In this document: one piece after another, positions 11,830 to 52,372 of the stretch
Layout of the letters: each line of letters begins with the position of its first letter
How positions within the stretch are numbered: the first letter of the stretch is position 1
Assembly (NCBI GenBank): GCA_041655935.1
Contig: JBBAEK010000006.1
Coordinates: 3,390 to 67,389, forward strand
Reading direction: 5' to 3'
DNA from: Eubacteriales bacterium
GTDB taxonomy: Bacteria > Bacillota > Clostridia > Oscillospirales > CAG-272
Length of the DNA stretch: 64,000 nt
Translations under genes and position numbers: made by a program
The notes under the pieces: model-generated
The model's database searches: none
What the model was told of the DNA's origin: nothing
Seen by the model: the letters and a program-made list of their open reading frames with translations, nothing else

Positions 11830-13203
11830 TCAATACGCATTCACGCTGGCGGCGTCCACCACGATCTCCACCTCCACCGGTGTATTACCTCGCAACAGAT
11901 GCAGCGTGACGGTATCTCCCACGCGGGCATTCAGCATGGCGTCCACCACGACAAAGGTCCTGCTCACCTCATAGGTGCACCCCCGCAGCTCCAGTGAGAC
12001 AATCACATCCCCCGCCTGCAGTTTGCCCTCCGCCAGGCTGCCCGGCGCGACACTGCTCACCTCTACCCTTTCCACCACCCGCGCCATGCCGCTCGAGGGG
12101 TCATAGACTGCCTTGGAGCCACCGACCTCCACGCTCACCCCCAGCATACAGCGCTGCAAGGTGTTCAGTGTCCCGTCCGCACAGTGGTCAATGATGTTTT
12201 GCGCCACATTCACCGCAATATTGGCGGGGATGGCATACCCGATATTTTCGGTTTCGGCATCCACCATTTTGGCGTTGACAATGCCGATTAGCTGCCCCTG
12301 TGCGCTAAACAACCCGCCCCCGCTGTTGCCGAAGTTGATCGGGGTGTCCACACGGATCACCCGTTGGGTCACCACCGCCCGCTCATCGGGAGAGATCATG
12401 GTGATGTACTCCGAGTCCACGCAGACAATCCCCGAGGTAGCGGAAATCCCCTGTGCCTCCGGGTTGCCGATGGCGATGGCGGTTTGGCCCGCCGCCACCC
12501 CGTTTGAGTCGGCCGGCTCGACCGCGCACGCGTCACTGCCCGCCAGAATACTGCTGTCTTTCACCCGCAACACGGCGATGTCATAGTACATCGACCCCCC
12601 GACATATTCCACCTCAATCTGATAGGGTTCATATTCCATGCCGTACAGGTATATGTATATCTCGTCGCTGATGCCGTCCGGCGTGTCGCTGTCCGGGTGA
12701 TACACCACATGGTAGTTGGTGATGATATACGCGTCGCCGCTCGCCTTGTCCAATTGGTAGATGGCCCCCGACCCGGCAGCGCTTTCCTGCTCGGTGAAGG
12801 TATGGCTCCCGATGCGGTAGGTGACGTCGAAGTCAGCATAGATGCTGACGCAGGACAGAATGGCTTTTCCCAGCGCCGCCTGCCCCGCCTCCGCCTGAAT
12901 GGTGATATCGTATTGCTGAATGGTGGGACTGAGCGAGTCAATGAAGTCCTGTTCGGACCCCGTATTGCCAAGTCCGAGCCAGATGTCATAAGCAGACGCC
13001 CCCCGCAGGGCGGCGTACCATTCCTCCTCGCTTCCCTCAAATCCGCTTTGCACCGCGAGCTGATAGGGCGAGAGCACCCCGACGTCCGATGTCGTCGTGG
13101 TGGCGTCAAACTCCATCACACACCCACTCAGTCCCGAAAGTGACACACAGAGCAGCAACGACAGGCAAAACATCGCCGCCCGATACCCAAAGCGCTGTTT
13201 CAT
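11830..13203 (-). CDS. Trypsin-like serine protease (HtrA/DegP-like) lipoprotein with a C-terminal PDZ-like region
   Basis: The catalytic serine motif is GNSGGGLF and the histidine region is ITNYHVV. A lipobox is present (LSGLSGCV). I trimmed the start to MKQRFGY (ATG at 13203), which follows AGAAGGAGA. Confidence 0.85.
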   Translation of the reverse strand: MKQRFGYRAAMFCLSLLLCVSLSGLSGCVMEFDATTTTSDVGVLSPYQLAVQSGFEGSEEEWYAALRGASAYDIWLGLGNTGSEQDFIDSLSPTIQQYDITIQAEAGQAALGKAILSCVSIYADFDVTYRIGSHTFTEQESAAGSGAIYQLDKASGDAYIITNYHVVYHPDSDTPDGISDEIYIYLYGMEYEPYQIEVEYVGGSMYYDIAVLRVKDSSILAGSDACAVEPADSNGVAAGQTAIAIGNPEAQGISATSGIVCVDSEYITMISPDERAVVTQRVIRVDTPINFGNSGGGLFSAQGQLIGIVNAKMVDAETENIGYAIPANIAVNVAQNIIDHCADGTLNTLQRCMLGVSVEVGGSKAVYDPSSGMARVVERVEVSSVAPGSLAEGKLQAGDVIVSLELRGCTYEVSRTFVVVDAMLNARVGDTVTLHLLRGNTPVEVEIVVDAASVNAY

Positions 13204-13342
13204 GGTAACCGTCTCCTTCTGTTTTTCATTCTGCATACCGCCCTCACGCGCCATATGCCGGTTTGTTCCCTTTATTCTACCCCTTATTTGTGAGAAAAAT
13301 ATGAATTTTTGACCGCTCGACCGTAAATGCTTTGAAAAAACA

Positions 13343-13371
13343 TTGACAAACCACCCCCCCGGTGGTATACT
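13343..13371 (+). promoter_or_regulatory. Consensus sigma-A promoter driving the T-box leader
   Basis: TTGACA (13343-13348), a 17-nt spacer, then TGGTATACT (-10 hexamer at 13366-13371). Confidence 0.65.
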
Positions 13372-13380
13372 GTACGCACA

Positions 13381-13637
13381 TGCGATGATCGGAAACAAGT
13401 AGTCCGGCAAACCTTTTGCAGAGACGCTGCGGCAGGTGCGAGCAGCGAAAGAGTGGCCGGTATGAATACCTTCCGGGAGCAGCGCACCGAAAGGCCGCGA
13501 GTAGGCTGCGACGGCGACGCCCGTTATGCGTCGGGGTCATCACCTGACCCGTCAAGGCCGTCTGTCGCGAGACAGCGGTAAATTGAGGTGGTAACACGGC
13601 CACGGTCGTCCTCTGCGATGCCAGAGGACTTTTTTTA
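13381..13637 (+). promoter_or_regulatory. T-box leader (tRNA-sensing transcription attenuator)
   Basis: The Stem I base is TGCGATGA...AAGTAG and the distal elements are GCAGAGAC...GGCAGGTGCGAGC. The candidate specifier loop is CCGAAAGGCCGCGAGTAG. The T-box sequence is AATTGAGGTGGTAACACGG (13581-13599). The terminator pairs GTCCTCTG (13608-13615) with CAGAGGAC (13622-13629) and is followed by T7. Confidence 0.8.
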
Positions 13638-13669
13638 TTGCCCAAAGCCAGTCTGAAAGGATGTCCAGC

Positions 13670-15301
13670 ATGCCCATCACCGAATTTCTGCGAACCAACG
13701 CCGCCCGGTACCCCGACGAGGTTGCCTTGGTGGAGATCAACCCCACCGACCGGCCCGCCGCCCCCCAGGCATGGCGGGAGTTTCAGCTCATCGAGCCCGC
13801 CCGCGCCGACAGCTACCGGCGCACCCTGACCTGGGCGCAGTTTGACCGCGTGGCCAACCAAGTCGCCCATATGCTCCAGGCTCACGGGGTCAAACCCGGC
13901 GAAAAAGTCGCCATTTTGCTTATGAACTGCCTGGAATGGCTCCCCCTGTATTTCGGCGTGTTGCGCGCGGGTGCCATCGTGGTGCCCATGAACTATCGCT
14001 ACACCGCCGAGGAGATTCAATACTGTCTGGAGCTGGCAGATGTCAGTCTGCTGGTCTTCGGGCCCGAGTTCACCACCCGCATCGAGCAGGTCCTGCCCAA
14101 GCTGCGGGTACGGGAATTTTTCTTTGTGGGCGAGCCCCGCCCCGCCTTTGCCGGGTCGCTTTCGGAGGCAGACAGCTTCCCCGCCGCCCCGCCCGCCCTC
14201 CCCTTGCGGGATGAGGACGACGCCGCCATCTACTTTTCCTCCGGCACCACCGGCTTTCCCAAAGCCATCTTACATACTCATGCTGCCCTGGTCTCCTCCT
14301 GCCTCACCGAGCAGCACCACCACGGCCAGTGCCATGAGGACGTCTTTTTGTGCATCCCCCCGCTCTACCATACCGGCGCCAAAATGCACTGGTTCGGCAG
14401 TCTGCTCTCGGGCAGCCGCGCGGTGTTGCTGCGCGGGGTGAGGCCCGAGTGGATCTTACAGACAGTCAGTGCGGAGCACGTCACCATTGTCTGGCTGCTG
14501 GTGCCGTGGGCACAGGACATCCTTGACGCCATCGAGCGGGGCGAGCTCAAGCCGGAGCAGTACCGCCTCTCCCAGTGGCGGCTGATGCATATCGGCGCCC
14601 AGCCCGTCCCCCCCTCTCTGGTCAAGCGCTGGCTGACCTGCTTCCCCCACCATCAGTATGACACCAATTATGGCCTTTCCGAGTCCATCGGTCCCGGCTG
14701 TGTGCATCTCGGGGTGGAGAACATTGACCATGTCGGTGCCATTGGCAAGGCGGGCTATCTCTGGCAGACCAAAATCATTGACGAACAGGGAGCCCCGGTG
14801 AAGCAGGGGCAGGTCGGTGAGCTGGCGGTCAAGGGGCCCGGCGTGATGAAAGAATACTACAAAAACCCCGAGGCGACCGCCGCCATCCTAAAGGAGGACG
14901 GCTGGTTGCTGACCGGCGATATGGCGCGCGAGGACGAGCAGGGCTTCATTTACCTGGTAGACCGCAAGAAGGATGTCATCATCTCCGGGGGCGAGAATAT
15001 TTACCCCGTTCAGATCGAGGACTTCCTGCGCGCCCACCCGCACATCAAGGATGTGGCGGTCATCGGACTGCCCGAGTCGCGGCTGGGCGAGATCACCGCC
15101 GCCATCATCTCCTGCAAGGACGGGTGCAGCCTGACCGAAGCGGAAGTACAGTCCTTCTGCGAAGGCCTCCCCCGCTACAAGCGGCCAAGAAAGGTCATTT
15201 TTGCCGAGGTTCCCCGCAATCCTACCGGCAAGATTGAAAAACCAAAGCTCCGCGAGATCTACTGCGGTGTCCGCCTGGTGGAAGCGCAGACCACCAAGTA
15301 A
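13670..15301 (+). CDS. AMP-dependent synthetase/ligase (acyl-CoA-synthetase-like adenylate-forming enzyme)
   Basis: The AMP-binding motifs are YFSSGTTGFPKA, YGLSES, LTGDMA and ISGGENIYP, with the C-terminal lysine in PTGKIEK. I prefer the ATG at 13670 (GAAAGGA, 8 nt, ATG) over 13661. Confidence 0.9.
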   Translation: MPITEFLRTNAARYPDEVALVEINPTDRPAAPQAWREFQLIEPARADSYRRTLTWAQFDRVANQVAHMLQAHGVKPGEKVAILLMNCLEWLPLYFGVLRAGAIVVPMNYRYTAEEIQYCLELADVSLLVFGPEFTTRIEQVLPKLRVREFFFVGEPRPAFAGSLSEADSFPAAPPALPLRDEDDAAIYFSSGTTGFPKAILHTHAALVSSCLTEQHHHGQCHEDVFLCIPPLYHTGAKMHWFGSLLSGSRAVLLRGVRPEWILQTVSAEHVTIVWLLVPWAQDILDAIERGELKPEQYRLSQWRLMHIGAQPVPPSLVKRWLTCFPHHQYDTNYGLSESIGPGCVHLGVENIDHVGAIGKAGYLWQTKIIDEQGAPVKQGQVGELAVKGPGVMKEYYKNPEATAAILKEDGWLLTGDMAREDEQGFIYLVDRKKDVIISGGENIYPVQIEDFLRAHPHIKDVAVIGLPESRLGEITAAIISCKDGCSLTEAEVQSFCEGLPRYKRPRKVIFAEVPRNPTGKIEKPKLREIYCGVRLVEAQTTK

Positions 15302-15340
15302 TCCCCCGTCAAACCCAGGCACCGCGAGCCGGTGCCCCCC

Positions 15341-15388
15341 AAAAGAACGCTGCCCAAGCCATCGTCAGGCTTGGGCAGCGTTCTTTTA
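15341..15388. terminator. Bidirectional rho-independent terminator between convergent genes
   Basis: An 18-bp stem pairs AAGAACGCTGCCCAAGCC (15343-15360) with GGCTTGGGCAGCGTTCTT (15368-15385). T or A runs flank it on both sides. Confidence 0.7.
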
Positions 15389-15922
15389 CGGAATATAGAC
15401 CTTTTGCTTGCGCAGTATTTGTACCCACGGGGGAATGACGAGCAGTTGCAGGATGATCCCCGGGAGCGCAGTGACAAACGCGCCGGCCACAAAGGCGTTC
15501 ATGCCAAACGACCCGCCCCGAAAGCCGAAAATGATGGCCGACACCACCCCCCACAGCACACGCCCTGCCAGCATGGCGGCCAGCAGTACCAGATAGGTGT
15601 TGAGCAAGTTCTTTTTCGTCACCTGCCGAAAGAGGTAGCCCGCCACCAGCCCATACACCGCCAGCTCAAAGGCCATCGCCAGCCCGACAGGCATAATGGG
15701 CGGCATGCCCGCGATCAAAAAGCGCAACAGCGGCGCGGTAAAGCCCACCGCCGCCCCCCAGCTACCCCCGCAGATAAAGCCGCAGAGCAGCACGGGGATG
15801 TGCATGGGCAGGAACATCTGCCCCACCTGTTGCAGTTGCCCTGTGAGGTAGGGCAGCACCAGTGCCAGCGCCAAAAACAGCCCTGACATACAAATTTGCA
15901 GTACTCTTGTTTGTTGTTTCAT
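15386..15922 (-). CDS. ECF-transporter S (substrate-capture) component, substrate unknown
   Basis: This is a small polytopic membrane protein with FLPMHIPVLLCGFICG, typical of ECF S units. I trimmed the start to MKQQTRV (ATG at 15922), which follows GGAGAAAGAA. No ECF A or T genes are nearby. Confidence 0.75.
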   Translation of the reverse strand: MKQQTRVLQICMSGLFLALALVLPYLTGQLQQVGQMFLPMHIPVLLCGFICGGSWGAAVGFTAPLLRFLIAGMPPIMPVGLAMAFELAVYGLVAGYLFRQVTKKNLLNTYLVLLAAMLAGRVLWGVVSAIIFGFRGGSFGMNAFVAGAFVTALPGIILQLLVIPPWVQILRKQKVYIP

Positions 15923-16118
15923 TTCTTTCTCCTTCTGTCTGTCAATGAATCTACACGGGCATGCCGCAAAGGGCCTATCCCGCCTCATAAAACCCTGTTT
16001 TTAGGGTATCATAATGGATGACCGCACACCGCCGCCCTCGGCGGGGGTGCGCAGCACTCTTTTGACAGGCAACGGCACACTCTGTGAAAAATATACGGTA
16101 AGAGAAAGGAATGTTCCG

Positions 16119-24341: not shown

Positions 24342-24458
24342 CTGCACTACCTCGCTTAAAATGGTTAAAAATTTTGCCCTTAGACGGATTCCAACCGACA
24401 CCTTTGATAACAACGCTCTCCCTTAAGCTACTGGGGCATATAGACATTTTAATTAAGA

Positions 24459-52137: not shown

Positions 52138-52214
52138 CTTACATAAAATCAGATGCAACCAAAAGCAGGCGTTTTGGCATAGAACACGCACTTAAAATTG
52201 AATATTTCGAGCGA

Positions 52215-52372
52215 AGAATTCGGGAGAGACCGCTGCACAGCGGCGCCGAAGGTGAATTGCGCTAAACTCTCAGGCAAAAGAACCGAATTTGGACGAAACT
52301 CTGGAAAGCCATCAAATTGGCACCGAAGAAGCAATTCCTTTGGGAAGAATCTTTCAGGTAAAAAGGCAGAGA
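52215..52372 (+). promoter_or_regulatory. Tandem glycine riboswitch
   Basis: Aptamer 1 reads CGGGAGAGACCGCTGCACAGCGGCGCCGAAGGTGAA...ACTCTCAGGCAAAAGAAC. Aptamer 2 reads CTCTGGAAAGCC...GGCACCGAAGAAGCAA...TCTTTCAGGTAAAAGGCAGAG. It sits directly upstream of gcvT. Confidence 0.85.

Follow-up and report, generated by a model that had tools for sequence, protein, structure and literature searches.

A T-box leader predicted to read tRNA-Tyr precedes an ANL-superfamily acid-CoA ligase gene, a candidate for 4-hydroxyphenylacetate salvage in Clostridia

The window, a 64,000-nucleotide stretch of an Eubacteriales bacterium contig (JBBAEK010000006.1), carries a T-box leader followed by a single gene encoding a 543-residue ANL-superfamily enzyme, both on the forward strand. 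A sigma-70-type promoter is positioned at 13343–13371 (+), where TTGACA and TATACT (11/12 matches) are separated by a 17-nt spacer with a TG extension; it is the sole promoter-like site in 13100–15600 (shuffle mean 0.5). The class I transcriptional leader extends over 13376–13616 (+) and aligns with the full Rfam RF00230 model (model positions 1–219), where it reaches 100.7 bits and the gathering threshold is 93 (E 5e-21), displaying Stem I, Stem II, the IIA/B region, Stem III and the antiterminator. The T-box sequence AAATTGAGGTGGTAACACGG and the 5′ half of the antiterminator occupy 13580–13599 (+), as located by sequence and RF00230 alignment, and include at 13589–13592 a UGGU bulge whose predicted partner is the ACCA-3′ of uncharged tRNA. 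The intrinsic terminator GTCCTCTG-CGATGC-CAGAGGAC at 13608–13629 (+) is formed by an 8-bp stem and a 6-nt loop, with a T7 run extending to 13636. The CCUC segment (13610–13613) is common to the terminator 5′ arm and the antiterminator 3′ strand, making the two helices mutually exclusive, and the terminator hairpin is present in the minimum-free-energy fold. A ribosome-binding site, GAAAGGA (13655–13661, +), lies 8 nt upstream of the ATG at 13670, a start favoured over the upstream ATG at 13661 by the orthologue N-termini (MPIT... or MPD...), and the coding sequence runs over 13670–15301 (+). Beyond the stop codon a perfect 19-bp inverted repeat with A-run and T-run flanks (AAAAGAACGCTGCCCAAGC / GCTTGGGCAGCGTTCTTTT, 15341–15387), read directly from the sequence, is likely a bidirectional terminator ending the ligase unit. 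The unit is monocistronic, the next gene (ECF S-component, 15386–15988) being convergent on the other strand. The T-box leader upstream of the ANL ligase is genuine. The initial annotation had described a complete T-box, with its T-box sequence and T7 terminator, ahead of an ANL enzyme instead of an aminoacyl-tRNA synthetase, classical biosynthetic or transporter gene, with no further gene in the unit; it had proposed the RF00230 alignment as a check, and on all these points its description holds.

The same annotation had placed the specifier loop at CCGAAAGGCCGCGAGTAG (13487–13504, +), reading there a Gly (GGC) or an Ala (GCC) codon. This segment aligns to RF00230 model positions about 109–130, in the second hairpin, and is the Stem II loop (GAAA...AGUA). 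The covariance-model alignments locate the specifier loop on the 3′ side of Stem I, at 13464–13470 (+), where GAA (13464–13466) is followed by UAC (Tyr, 13467–13469) and C (13470). The gapless model alignment positions ACC rather than UAC at the codon, both in the window leader and in one related leader (L017). The UAC register follows from the closure of the lower stem by GGAA:UUCC and is backed by leaders reading GAA-UAC-A (e.g. L009, L012 and L008), while GAAU-UAC-A in five related leaders of canonical register excludes the ACC (Thr) reading and fixes the UAC register. TAC is invariant across a 15-leader alignment and UAC is found in 17 further leaders, thus in 32/32 complete leaders spanning many genera, the set comprising complete T-boxes upstream of ANL orthologues or of symporter-orthologue operons in other Clostridia. 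Checking orthologues for T-boxes, as had been suggested at the outset, has revealed many that possess one, with specifier UAC. With this and the RF00230 score, neither of the two outcomes that the initial annotation had named as refuting its claim was observed. A point against the reading is that the base following the codon is C and not the usual purine, although the same is observed in two related leaders (G018 and L060) and, within the source genome, in the Leu and Trp T-boxes.

The tRNA discriminator bases were compared with the bulge. The genome's tRNA-Tyr(GUA), encoded on contig C5, has discriminator A, which fits UGGU; the Trp T-box of the genome provides an internal control, with a UGGC bulge and G as the tRNA-Trp discriminator. 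The tRNA-Gly and tRNA-Thr of the genome both have discriminator U, which UGGU does not fit, and for tRNA-Gly a UGGA bulge would be needed. The threonine register is thereby rejected on the tRNA side as well, and the glycine or alanine assignment fails both through the location of its codons in the Stem II loop and through the mismatched tRNA-Gly discriminator. On sequence grounds the specifier is that of tRNA-Tyr(GUA), making this a tyrosine and not a glycine or alanine T-box.

The ligase displays the Pfam AMP-binding (PF00501, 257 bits) and AMP-binding_C (PF13193, 47 bits) domains and belongs to a FadD13/4CL-like clade. Its ANL core motifs are intact (SSGTTGFPK, YGLSE, TGD, DRKKDVIISGGENIYP and PTGKIEK), with A3, A5, A7, A8 and the A10 lysine all present. 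The AF2 model (pLDDT 78) retrieves ANL structures at probability 1.00 with Foldseek. In searches by sequence and by fold the enzyme comes no closer to fatty-acid ligases than to hydroxycinnamate ligases, and luciferase relatives also tie in Foldseek; with such ties on a generic ANL fold, the structure says nothing on the substrate. The top NCBIfam match is NF004837, a 'long-chain-fatty-acid--CoA ligase' subfamily model, at 394.4 bits, below its cut-off of 476, and none among the best 25 of 103 matched models reaches its cut-off, so that no curated equivalog model is attained among these. TIGR02155 (PaaK) is absent from the best 25 NCBIfam matches, and the C-terminal domain is AMP-binding_C, not AMP-binding_C_2. 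By these models the enzyme classifies neither as PaaK nor as a long-chain fatty-acid-CoA ligase. It is assigned as an AMP-forming acid-CoA ligase, its family being closest to CoA ligases. The family was found in 188/401 sampled genomes of the class, about half of the sampled Clostridia; a cultured strain, Yeguia hominis NSJ-40, carries an orthologue (L041).

Genomic context ties the ligase family to IorAB, an indolepyruvate/arylpyruvate:ferredoxin oxidoreductase, and to a PaaK phenylacetate-CoA ligase, a sodium:solute symporter (SSF) and an ACT-pair protein, which neighbour its orthologues in Clostridia and Desulfobacterota. The true PaaK neighbour reaches 561 bits against TIGR02155. In one genome (G034) a Tyr T-box, ANL, SSF, IorA, IorB, PaaK and ACT follow each other on one strand, while in another (G032) a Tyr T-box and ANL are directly followed by a Phe (UUC) T-box leading PaaK, IorA, IorB, ACT and SSF; the IorA and IorB of G032 exceed their NCBIfam equivalog cut-offs. 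The order Tyr T-box, SSF, ANL is displayed by 13 operons. Seven orthologues without a T-box have IorA-IorB directly after ANL or ANL-SSF, with PaaK-ACT next in 5/7, and the Desulfobacterota orthologues (57–59% identity) have IorA-IorB directly downstream at at least 20 loci. In a sample of 61 relatives, IorA is present in 21/21 ANL carriers vs 22/40 non-carriers (Fisher p = 9.5e-5). A T-box was not found within the examined flank of many orthologues, nor at any Kiritimatiellia or Desulfobacterota orthologue, so the function of the family is independent of the switch. Kiritimatiellia neighbourhoods showed no conserved metabolic neighbour. IorAB clusters are usually read as oxidative and catabolic, a reading that stands against salvage.

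The source genome has its own iorA-iorB-paaK-ACT-SSF genes on contigs C37 and C65, apart from the contig of the ligase, with IorAB encoded at C37:8855–11166. No T-box was found upstream of this iorAB-paaK operon, and thus the remaining steps of the route proposed below are not co-regulated with the ligase in this genome. ANL ligases lie downstream of 4/6 T-boxes in the genome (Leu, Ile, Val and Tyr). The Val T-box precedes an HTH-cupin-ANL fusion, IlvE and three 2-oxoacid:ferredoxin oxidoreductase-type subunits, the last three being unscanned ORFs of which one resembles IorB. Downstream of the Ile and Leu T-boxes lie other ANL enzymes.

It is reasonably probable that tyrosine starvation in this gut anaerobe induces a 4-hydroxyphenylacetate-CoA ligase, whose product would be reductively carboxylated to 4-hydroxyphenylpyruvate on the way to tyrosine. 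Under tyrosine shortage, tRNA-Tyr lacking its amino acid would dock on Stem I and its free ACCA-3′ would pair with the UGGU bulge, an interaction that would stabilise the antiterminator and allow the polymerase to pass the terminator at 13608–13636 into the single gene. The ligase would convert imported 4-hydroxyphenylacetate, a fermentation acid, into 4-hydroxyphenylacetyl-CoA, from which IorAB, encoded elsewhere in the genome, would form 4-hydroxyphenylpyruvate at the expense of reduced ferredoxin and CO2, and an aminotransferase would complete the conversion to tyrosine. The analysis establishes that the T-box is present, specific for tyrosine and conserved, that the enzyme has the fold and motifs of the ANL superfamily and that its family is linked to IorAB; from these we infer which substrate it uses, that the route runs in the anabolic direction and what its physiological role is. 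The substrate is probably 4-hydroxyphenylacetate, as the regulatory logic and the gene neighbourhood together suggest. The suggestion in the initial annotation that the enzyme may activate an amino-acid-derived acid agrees with the direction of the comparative evidence. Since characterised PaaK enzymes accept phenylacetate as sole substrate (PMC8388817), the route would need a second ligase. The source genome encodes prephenate dehydrogenase (PDH_N) and chorismate synthase; salvage would thus supplement de novo tyrosine synthesis and not replace it, and salvage as the sole tyrosine source is rejected. Absence of tyrA did not differ significantly between ANL carriers (5/21) and the others (4/40; p = 0.25).

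We also lean, by a narrower measure of confidence, towards a wider proposal, that the FadD13/4CL-like family supplies the 4-hydroxyphenylacetate-CoA ligase so far missing from a widespread route of arylacetate salvage made up of symporter, ligase, IorAB reductive carboxylation and aminotransferase, itself one arm of a general T-box regulon. In such a regulon fermentation acids would be recovered as amino acids through acid-CoA ligases that the T-boxes of gut and rumen Clostridia switch on.

A different acid could serve the same purpose. With the Tyr T-box taken as real, the ligase may accept other tyrosine-related or broader aromatic acids, still for tyrosine supply. Besides 4-coumarate, the candidates include 4-hydroxyphenylpropionate and 4-hydroxyphenyllactate, or else the arylacetates as a whole, phenylacetate and indoleacetate among them. 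The nearest solved relatives comprise, at the same distance as FadD13, feruloyl-CoA synthetase and 4-coumarate-CoA ligase, and a single Tyr T-box heads the entire ANL-SSF-IorAB-PaaK-ACT operon of G034. However, IorAB, the most consistent partner, has only arylacetyl-CoAs as its acyl-CoA substrates or products, and the occurrence of a separate PaaK in the same operons, under a Phe T-box in G032, argues for distinct substrates; we regard this broader specificity as unlikely, though it deserves some weight. Lower still is the likelihood of a catabolic arylpyruvate fermentation, in which IorAB oxidises arylpyruvates to arylacetyl-CoA, the ligases work backwards or recycle acids and the T-box serves a purpose other than making tyrosine. 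IorAB is classically described as oxidative and many clusters are devoid of a T-box, but inducing a tyrosine-degrading enzyme upon accumulation of uncharged tRNA-Tyr would be counter-productive. The catabolic direction also sits poorly with the UAC codon kept in every leader across many genera, with the genome's own Val T-box operon, which shares the design and includes the aminotransferase IlvE, and with the coupling of an uptake-type symporter to the ligase in the T-box operons.

The ANL superfamily includes amino-acid-adenylating enzymes, and the initial annotation had raised the possibility that this one activates an amino acid. Adenylation of tyrosine or another amino acid, e.g. for an amide or ester product, in place of a deaminated acid is nevertheless very improbable: the adjacent genes encode no carrier protein, condensation domain or acceptor enzyme, using up tyrosine during tyrosine starvation is illogical, and both the proximity of the family to CoA ligases and the IorAB linkage indicate a 2-oxoacid/acyl-CoA route. 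There is hardly any likelihood that a generic fatty-acid-CoA ligase stands behind the T-box by chance, or that the T-box has a Gly/Ala specifier. The best NCBIfam match is indeed a long-chain fatty-acid-CoA ligase subfamily model, but it stays below cut-off (394 vs 476 bits) and the pairing with a T-box is repeated in 32 leaders; the Gly/Ala specifier is already refuted by the Stem II position of GGC and GCC and by the tRNA-Gly discriminator U against UGGU.

If the 4-hydroxyphenylacetate reading is correct, it would provide genes and control logic for the reductive carboxylation of arylacetic acids to aromatic amino acids. For an ANL enzyme that could not otherwise be annotated, the T-box specifier would in effect indicate the class of its substrate. 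4-Hydroxyphenylacetate is the gut precursor of p-cresol, and a common commensal sink for this acid could shift host-relevant metabolite pools.

Textbook T-box regulons comprise aminoacyl-tRNA synthetase, biosynthesis and transporter genes, and a conserved T-box class gating acid-CoA ligases would widen them. A literature search retrieved no paper linking T-boxes with CoA ligases, acyl-CoA synthetases, reductive carboxylation or indolepyruvate oxidoreductase, and nothing relevant on 4-hydroxyphenylacetate-CoA ligase; the putative T-box/acid-CoA ligase regulon thus appears undescribed in the literature searched. The founding Tyr (UAC) T-box is that of Bacillus subtilis tyrS. The leader described here has the architecture of that T-box and of class I transcriptional T-boxes (RF00230) in general: Stem I bears a K-turn, the specifier loop and distal platform motifs, and after it come Stem II, the IIA/B region, Stem III and a competing antiterminator and terminator. 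Similarly to the tyrS leader, it displays a UAC specifier and a UGGU bulge fitting discriminator A. In contrast, the position 3′ to the codon holds C instead of a purine, and the controlled gene encodes an acid-CoA ligase and not an aminoacyl-tRNA synthetase, a classical biosynthetic enzyme or a stand-alone amino-acid transporter.

Labelling of rumen and gut anaerobes in the 1960s–70s demonstrated the conversion of phenylacetate to Phe, 4-hydroxyphenylacetate to Tyr and indoleacetate to Trp. The route proposed here follows the same succession of acid, acyl-CoA, 2-oxoacid (through a ferredoxin-dependent oxidoreductase) and amino acid. The phenylacetate to Phe case is cited in PMC7356843. In the literature searched, neither genes nor a regulatory signal appear to have been tied to this physiology, known from rumen labelling, for which candidate genes and tRNA sensing are proposed here. 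PaaK (TIGR02155, found with iorAB) resembles the ligase in the AMP-forming activation of an aryl acid, as proposed for the latter, and shares operons with its family. It differs in belonging to another ANL subfamily of ~440 residues with AMP-binding_C_2, the window ligase having 543 residues and AMP-binding_C, and in G032 the two have separate T-boxes, Phe for PaaK and Tyr for the ligase family. The nearest solved relatives are FadD13, FadD5, feruloyl-CoA synthetase and 4-coumarate-CoA ligase (PDB 3r44, 8r2q, 8wev and 5bsm), which share with it the two-domain ANL fold and the core motifs at only 24–29% identity (Foldseek alignments of the AF2 model). The genomic context of the ligase family consists of IorAB, PaaK and the symporter, and not of beta-oxidation or phenylpropanoid genes.

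The leader at 13376-13616 (+) is a bona fide T-box, matched over the whole Rfam covariance model RF00230 with 100.7 bits (E 5e-21) against a gathering score of 93, as the initial annotation had proposed from the sequence. The sole promoter-like site of the region, at 13343-13371 (+), is near consensus with an extended -10 (TTGACA-17-TATACT). The T-box sequence AAATTGAGGTGGTAACACGG and the terminator GTCCTCTG/CAGAGGAC with its T7 run, both claimed earlier, are located at 13580-13599 (+) and 13608-13636 (+), respectively, with the 5' arm of the terminator overlapping the 3' strand of the antiterminator. The preferred start of the downstream ORF is the ATG at 13670 (+), because the RBS GAAAGGA lies 8 nt upstream and orthologues start with MPIT.../MPD.... 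The 543-residue product displays the Pfam domains AMP-binding and AMP-binding_C, so that the single gene controlled encodes, as first annotated, an ANL-superfamily enzyme instead of an aminoacyl-tRNA synthetase. Behind the ORF come a perfect inverted repeat of 19 bp (15341-15387) and an ECF S-component gene running in the convergent direction; the unit is thus monocistronic, again as anticipated. Upstream lies a divergent HtrA-type protease gene.

The specifier, in contrast, had been sought in the wrong loop. The specifier loop of a T-box is an internal loop of Stem I, and the sequence CCGAAAGGCCGCGAGTAG, initially read as GGC (Gly) or GCC (Ala), is assigned to the loop of Stem II when the leader is aligned to the covariance model. 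The specifier loop of this leader comprises ACAAGUA on the 5' side and AUGAA-UAC-C on the 3' side, and the lower stem is closed by GGAA:UUCC, which places a UAC (Tyr) codon at 13467-13469 (+). Gapless model alignment also permits ACC in this one leader, the register being settled by comparing leaders: leaders of orthologues elsewhere have GAA-UAC-A, in five the sequence is GAAU-UAC-A with UAC exactly on the model codon positions followed by a conserved A, and 15 such leaders, once aligned, show TAC without exception. The antiterminator bulge UGGU and the A-CCA end of the genome's own tRNA-Tyr(GUA) agree with the Tyr reading; as an internal control, the bulge of the own Trp T-box is UGGC and the tRNA-Trp discriminator is G. 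All own tRNA-Gly and tRNA-Thr genes carry discriminator U, which would require a UGGA bulge. Glycine is therefore ruled out twice, by position and by discriminator, threonine by the leader comparison and its discriminator, while alanine fails on position. The base 3' of UAC is C and not a purine, an oddity of this leader, with C also following the codon in two orthologous leaders and in the own Leu and Trp T-boxes. Overall, the leader is predicted to respond to tRNA-Tyr.

Of 61 close relatives (this genome counted), 21 have an orthologue of the ligase, with 60-71% identity. Across the class, 188 of the 401 genomes sampled have one (97 of 217 genera), and others at 57-68% identity are present in Kiritimatiellia/Lentisphaerae, one Eggerthellaceae MAG and many Desulfobacterota. 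Whether orthologues also carry T-boxes, and with which specifier, had been raised by the initial annotation: 32 complete leaders are tied to them, this one included, some directly preceding the orthologue and 13 preceding a bicistron of a sodium:solute symporter and the orthologue, while one further leader, cut by a contig end, lies outside this set. UAC is present in all 32 and UGGU in the 27 with a located bulge; many other orthologues have no T-box within the flank examined. At one locus (L034, 7540-8000) the ~470 nt between terminator and ligase start consist of GC-rich hairpin repeats, as read in L034 alone, and the corresponding gap at another locus (L037) is about as long. Orthologues in rumen and gut MAGs of Kiritimatiellia, Lentisphaerae and Verrucomicrobia (loci L043-L069 and L078) are 65-68% identical to the query, on a par with many Clostridia orthologues, and none has IorAB, PaaK or a symporter next to it; this identity outside Clostridia suggests that the gene has moved horizontally between anaerobes of the gut and rumen.

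Sequence and fold comparisons place the ligase in the neighbourhood of FadD13/FadD5/feruloyl-CoA synthetase/4CL at 24-29% identity, and as no curated equivalog is reached, they do not discriminate its substrate. Gene linkage points to indolepyruvate:ferredoxin oxidoreductase (IorAB), which interconverts arylpyruvates and arylacetyl-CoAs. IorA is present in 21/21 ligase carriers against 22/40 non-carriers among the 61 relatives (p = 9.5e-5). In genome G034 the genes for the ligase, the symporter, IorA, IorB, PaaK (phenylacetate-CoA ligase) and ACT follow a single Tyr T-box in this order, all on the same strand. Seven T-box-less orthologues, alone or with the symporter, are directly followed by IorA-IorB, five continuing with PaaK-ACT; in Desulfobacterota, IorA-IorB directly follow the orthologue in at least 20 loci and PaaK in three. 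In genome G032 the Tyr T-box and ligase directly precede a second T-box with specifier UUC (Phe; L030 8940-9192, minus strand) heading PaaK, IorA, IorB, an ACT-pair protein and the symporter, with IorA and IorB above NCBIfam equivalog cut-offs and PaaK at 561 bits on TIGR02155. Thus, the Phe and Tyr branches of one proposed salvage scheme adjoin each other. This genome has iorA-iorB-paaK-ACT-symporter on contigs C37 and C65, with no T-box ahead of the operon. A conserved 143-aa tandem-ACT protein (Pfam ACT_8) ends the IorAB-PaaK operons (L030 4749-5180; own C65:1102-1509) and may regulate the module by binding an amino acid.

The predicted specific induction of the ligase by uncharged tRNA-Tyr, together with its links to IorAB and to a symporter of uptake type, is best accounted for by a route from 4-hydroxyphenylacetate to tyrosine. 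The AMP-forming ligase would activate 4-hydroxyphenylacetate, IorAB would reductively carboxylate the CoA ester to 4-hydroxyphenylpyruvate, and transamination would yield tyrosine; both the ligase substrate and the IorAB direction are deduced from this context. For copies without a T-box the IorAB clusters are possibly catabolic, a reading hard to square with induction on tyrosine starvation. The salvage route would supplement de novo synthesis, as the genome encodes prephenate dehydrogenase and chorismate synthase. Characterised PaaK enzymes accept phenylacetate as sole substrate (PMC8388817), which would explain a second ligase, of another subfamily, in PaaK operons.

The T-box-plus-ANL design recurs elsewhere in this genome, where only one of six T-boxes controls an aminoacyl-tRNA synthetase (valS, by sequence pattern). 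Three in series outside the window (L001, L004 and L006; C1:65063-79804) have the look of a cluster for the salvage of branched-chain fatty acids. Behind the Leu T-box (CUC) come a LeuA-like protein, a TIM-barrel-ANL fusion and an amidohydrolase. The Ile (AUC) and Val (GUC) T-boxes each head an HTH-cupin-ANL fusion, the two being paralogous, and the Val fusion is followed by IlvE and three 2-oxoacid:ferredoxin oxidoreductase-type subunits, typed from the ORFs by eye, one resembling IorB. The Trp T-box (L005; C23:23700-25537; specifier UGG) controls neither trpS nor a trp operon but a 458-aa enzyme with a PALP domain (PF00291), TrpB2-like by its sequence. Within the window, two RF00504 aptamers (63.8 and 41.9 bits; 52211-52371, +) form a tandem glycine riboswitch that precedes a series of ORFs on the same strand. 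The Rfam tRNA model matches 63 nt at 24375-24437 (-) with 33.1 bits; this stretch, which has a shortened anticodon arm and is not called as tRNA by ARAGORN, may be a tRNA-like element or remnant.

Conversion of arylacetates to aromatic amino acids is old rumen physiology. Its Phe case is cited in PMC7356843. Full-text literature searches returned no paper joining T-boxes with CoA ligases or acyl-CoA synthetases, with reductive carboxylation or with indolepyruvate oxidoreductase, and none on a 4-hydroxyphenylacetate-CoA ligase gene. As an RNA, the leader is a usual representative of the known T-box class; the new variation lies in the kind of gene under its control and the pathway this implies.
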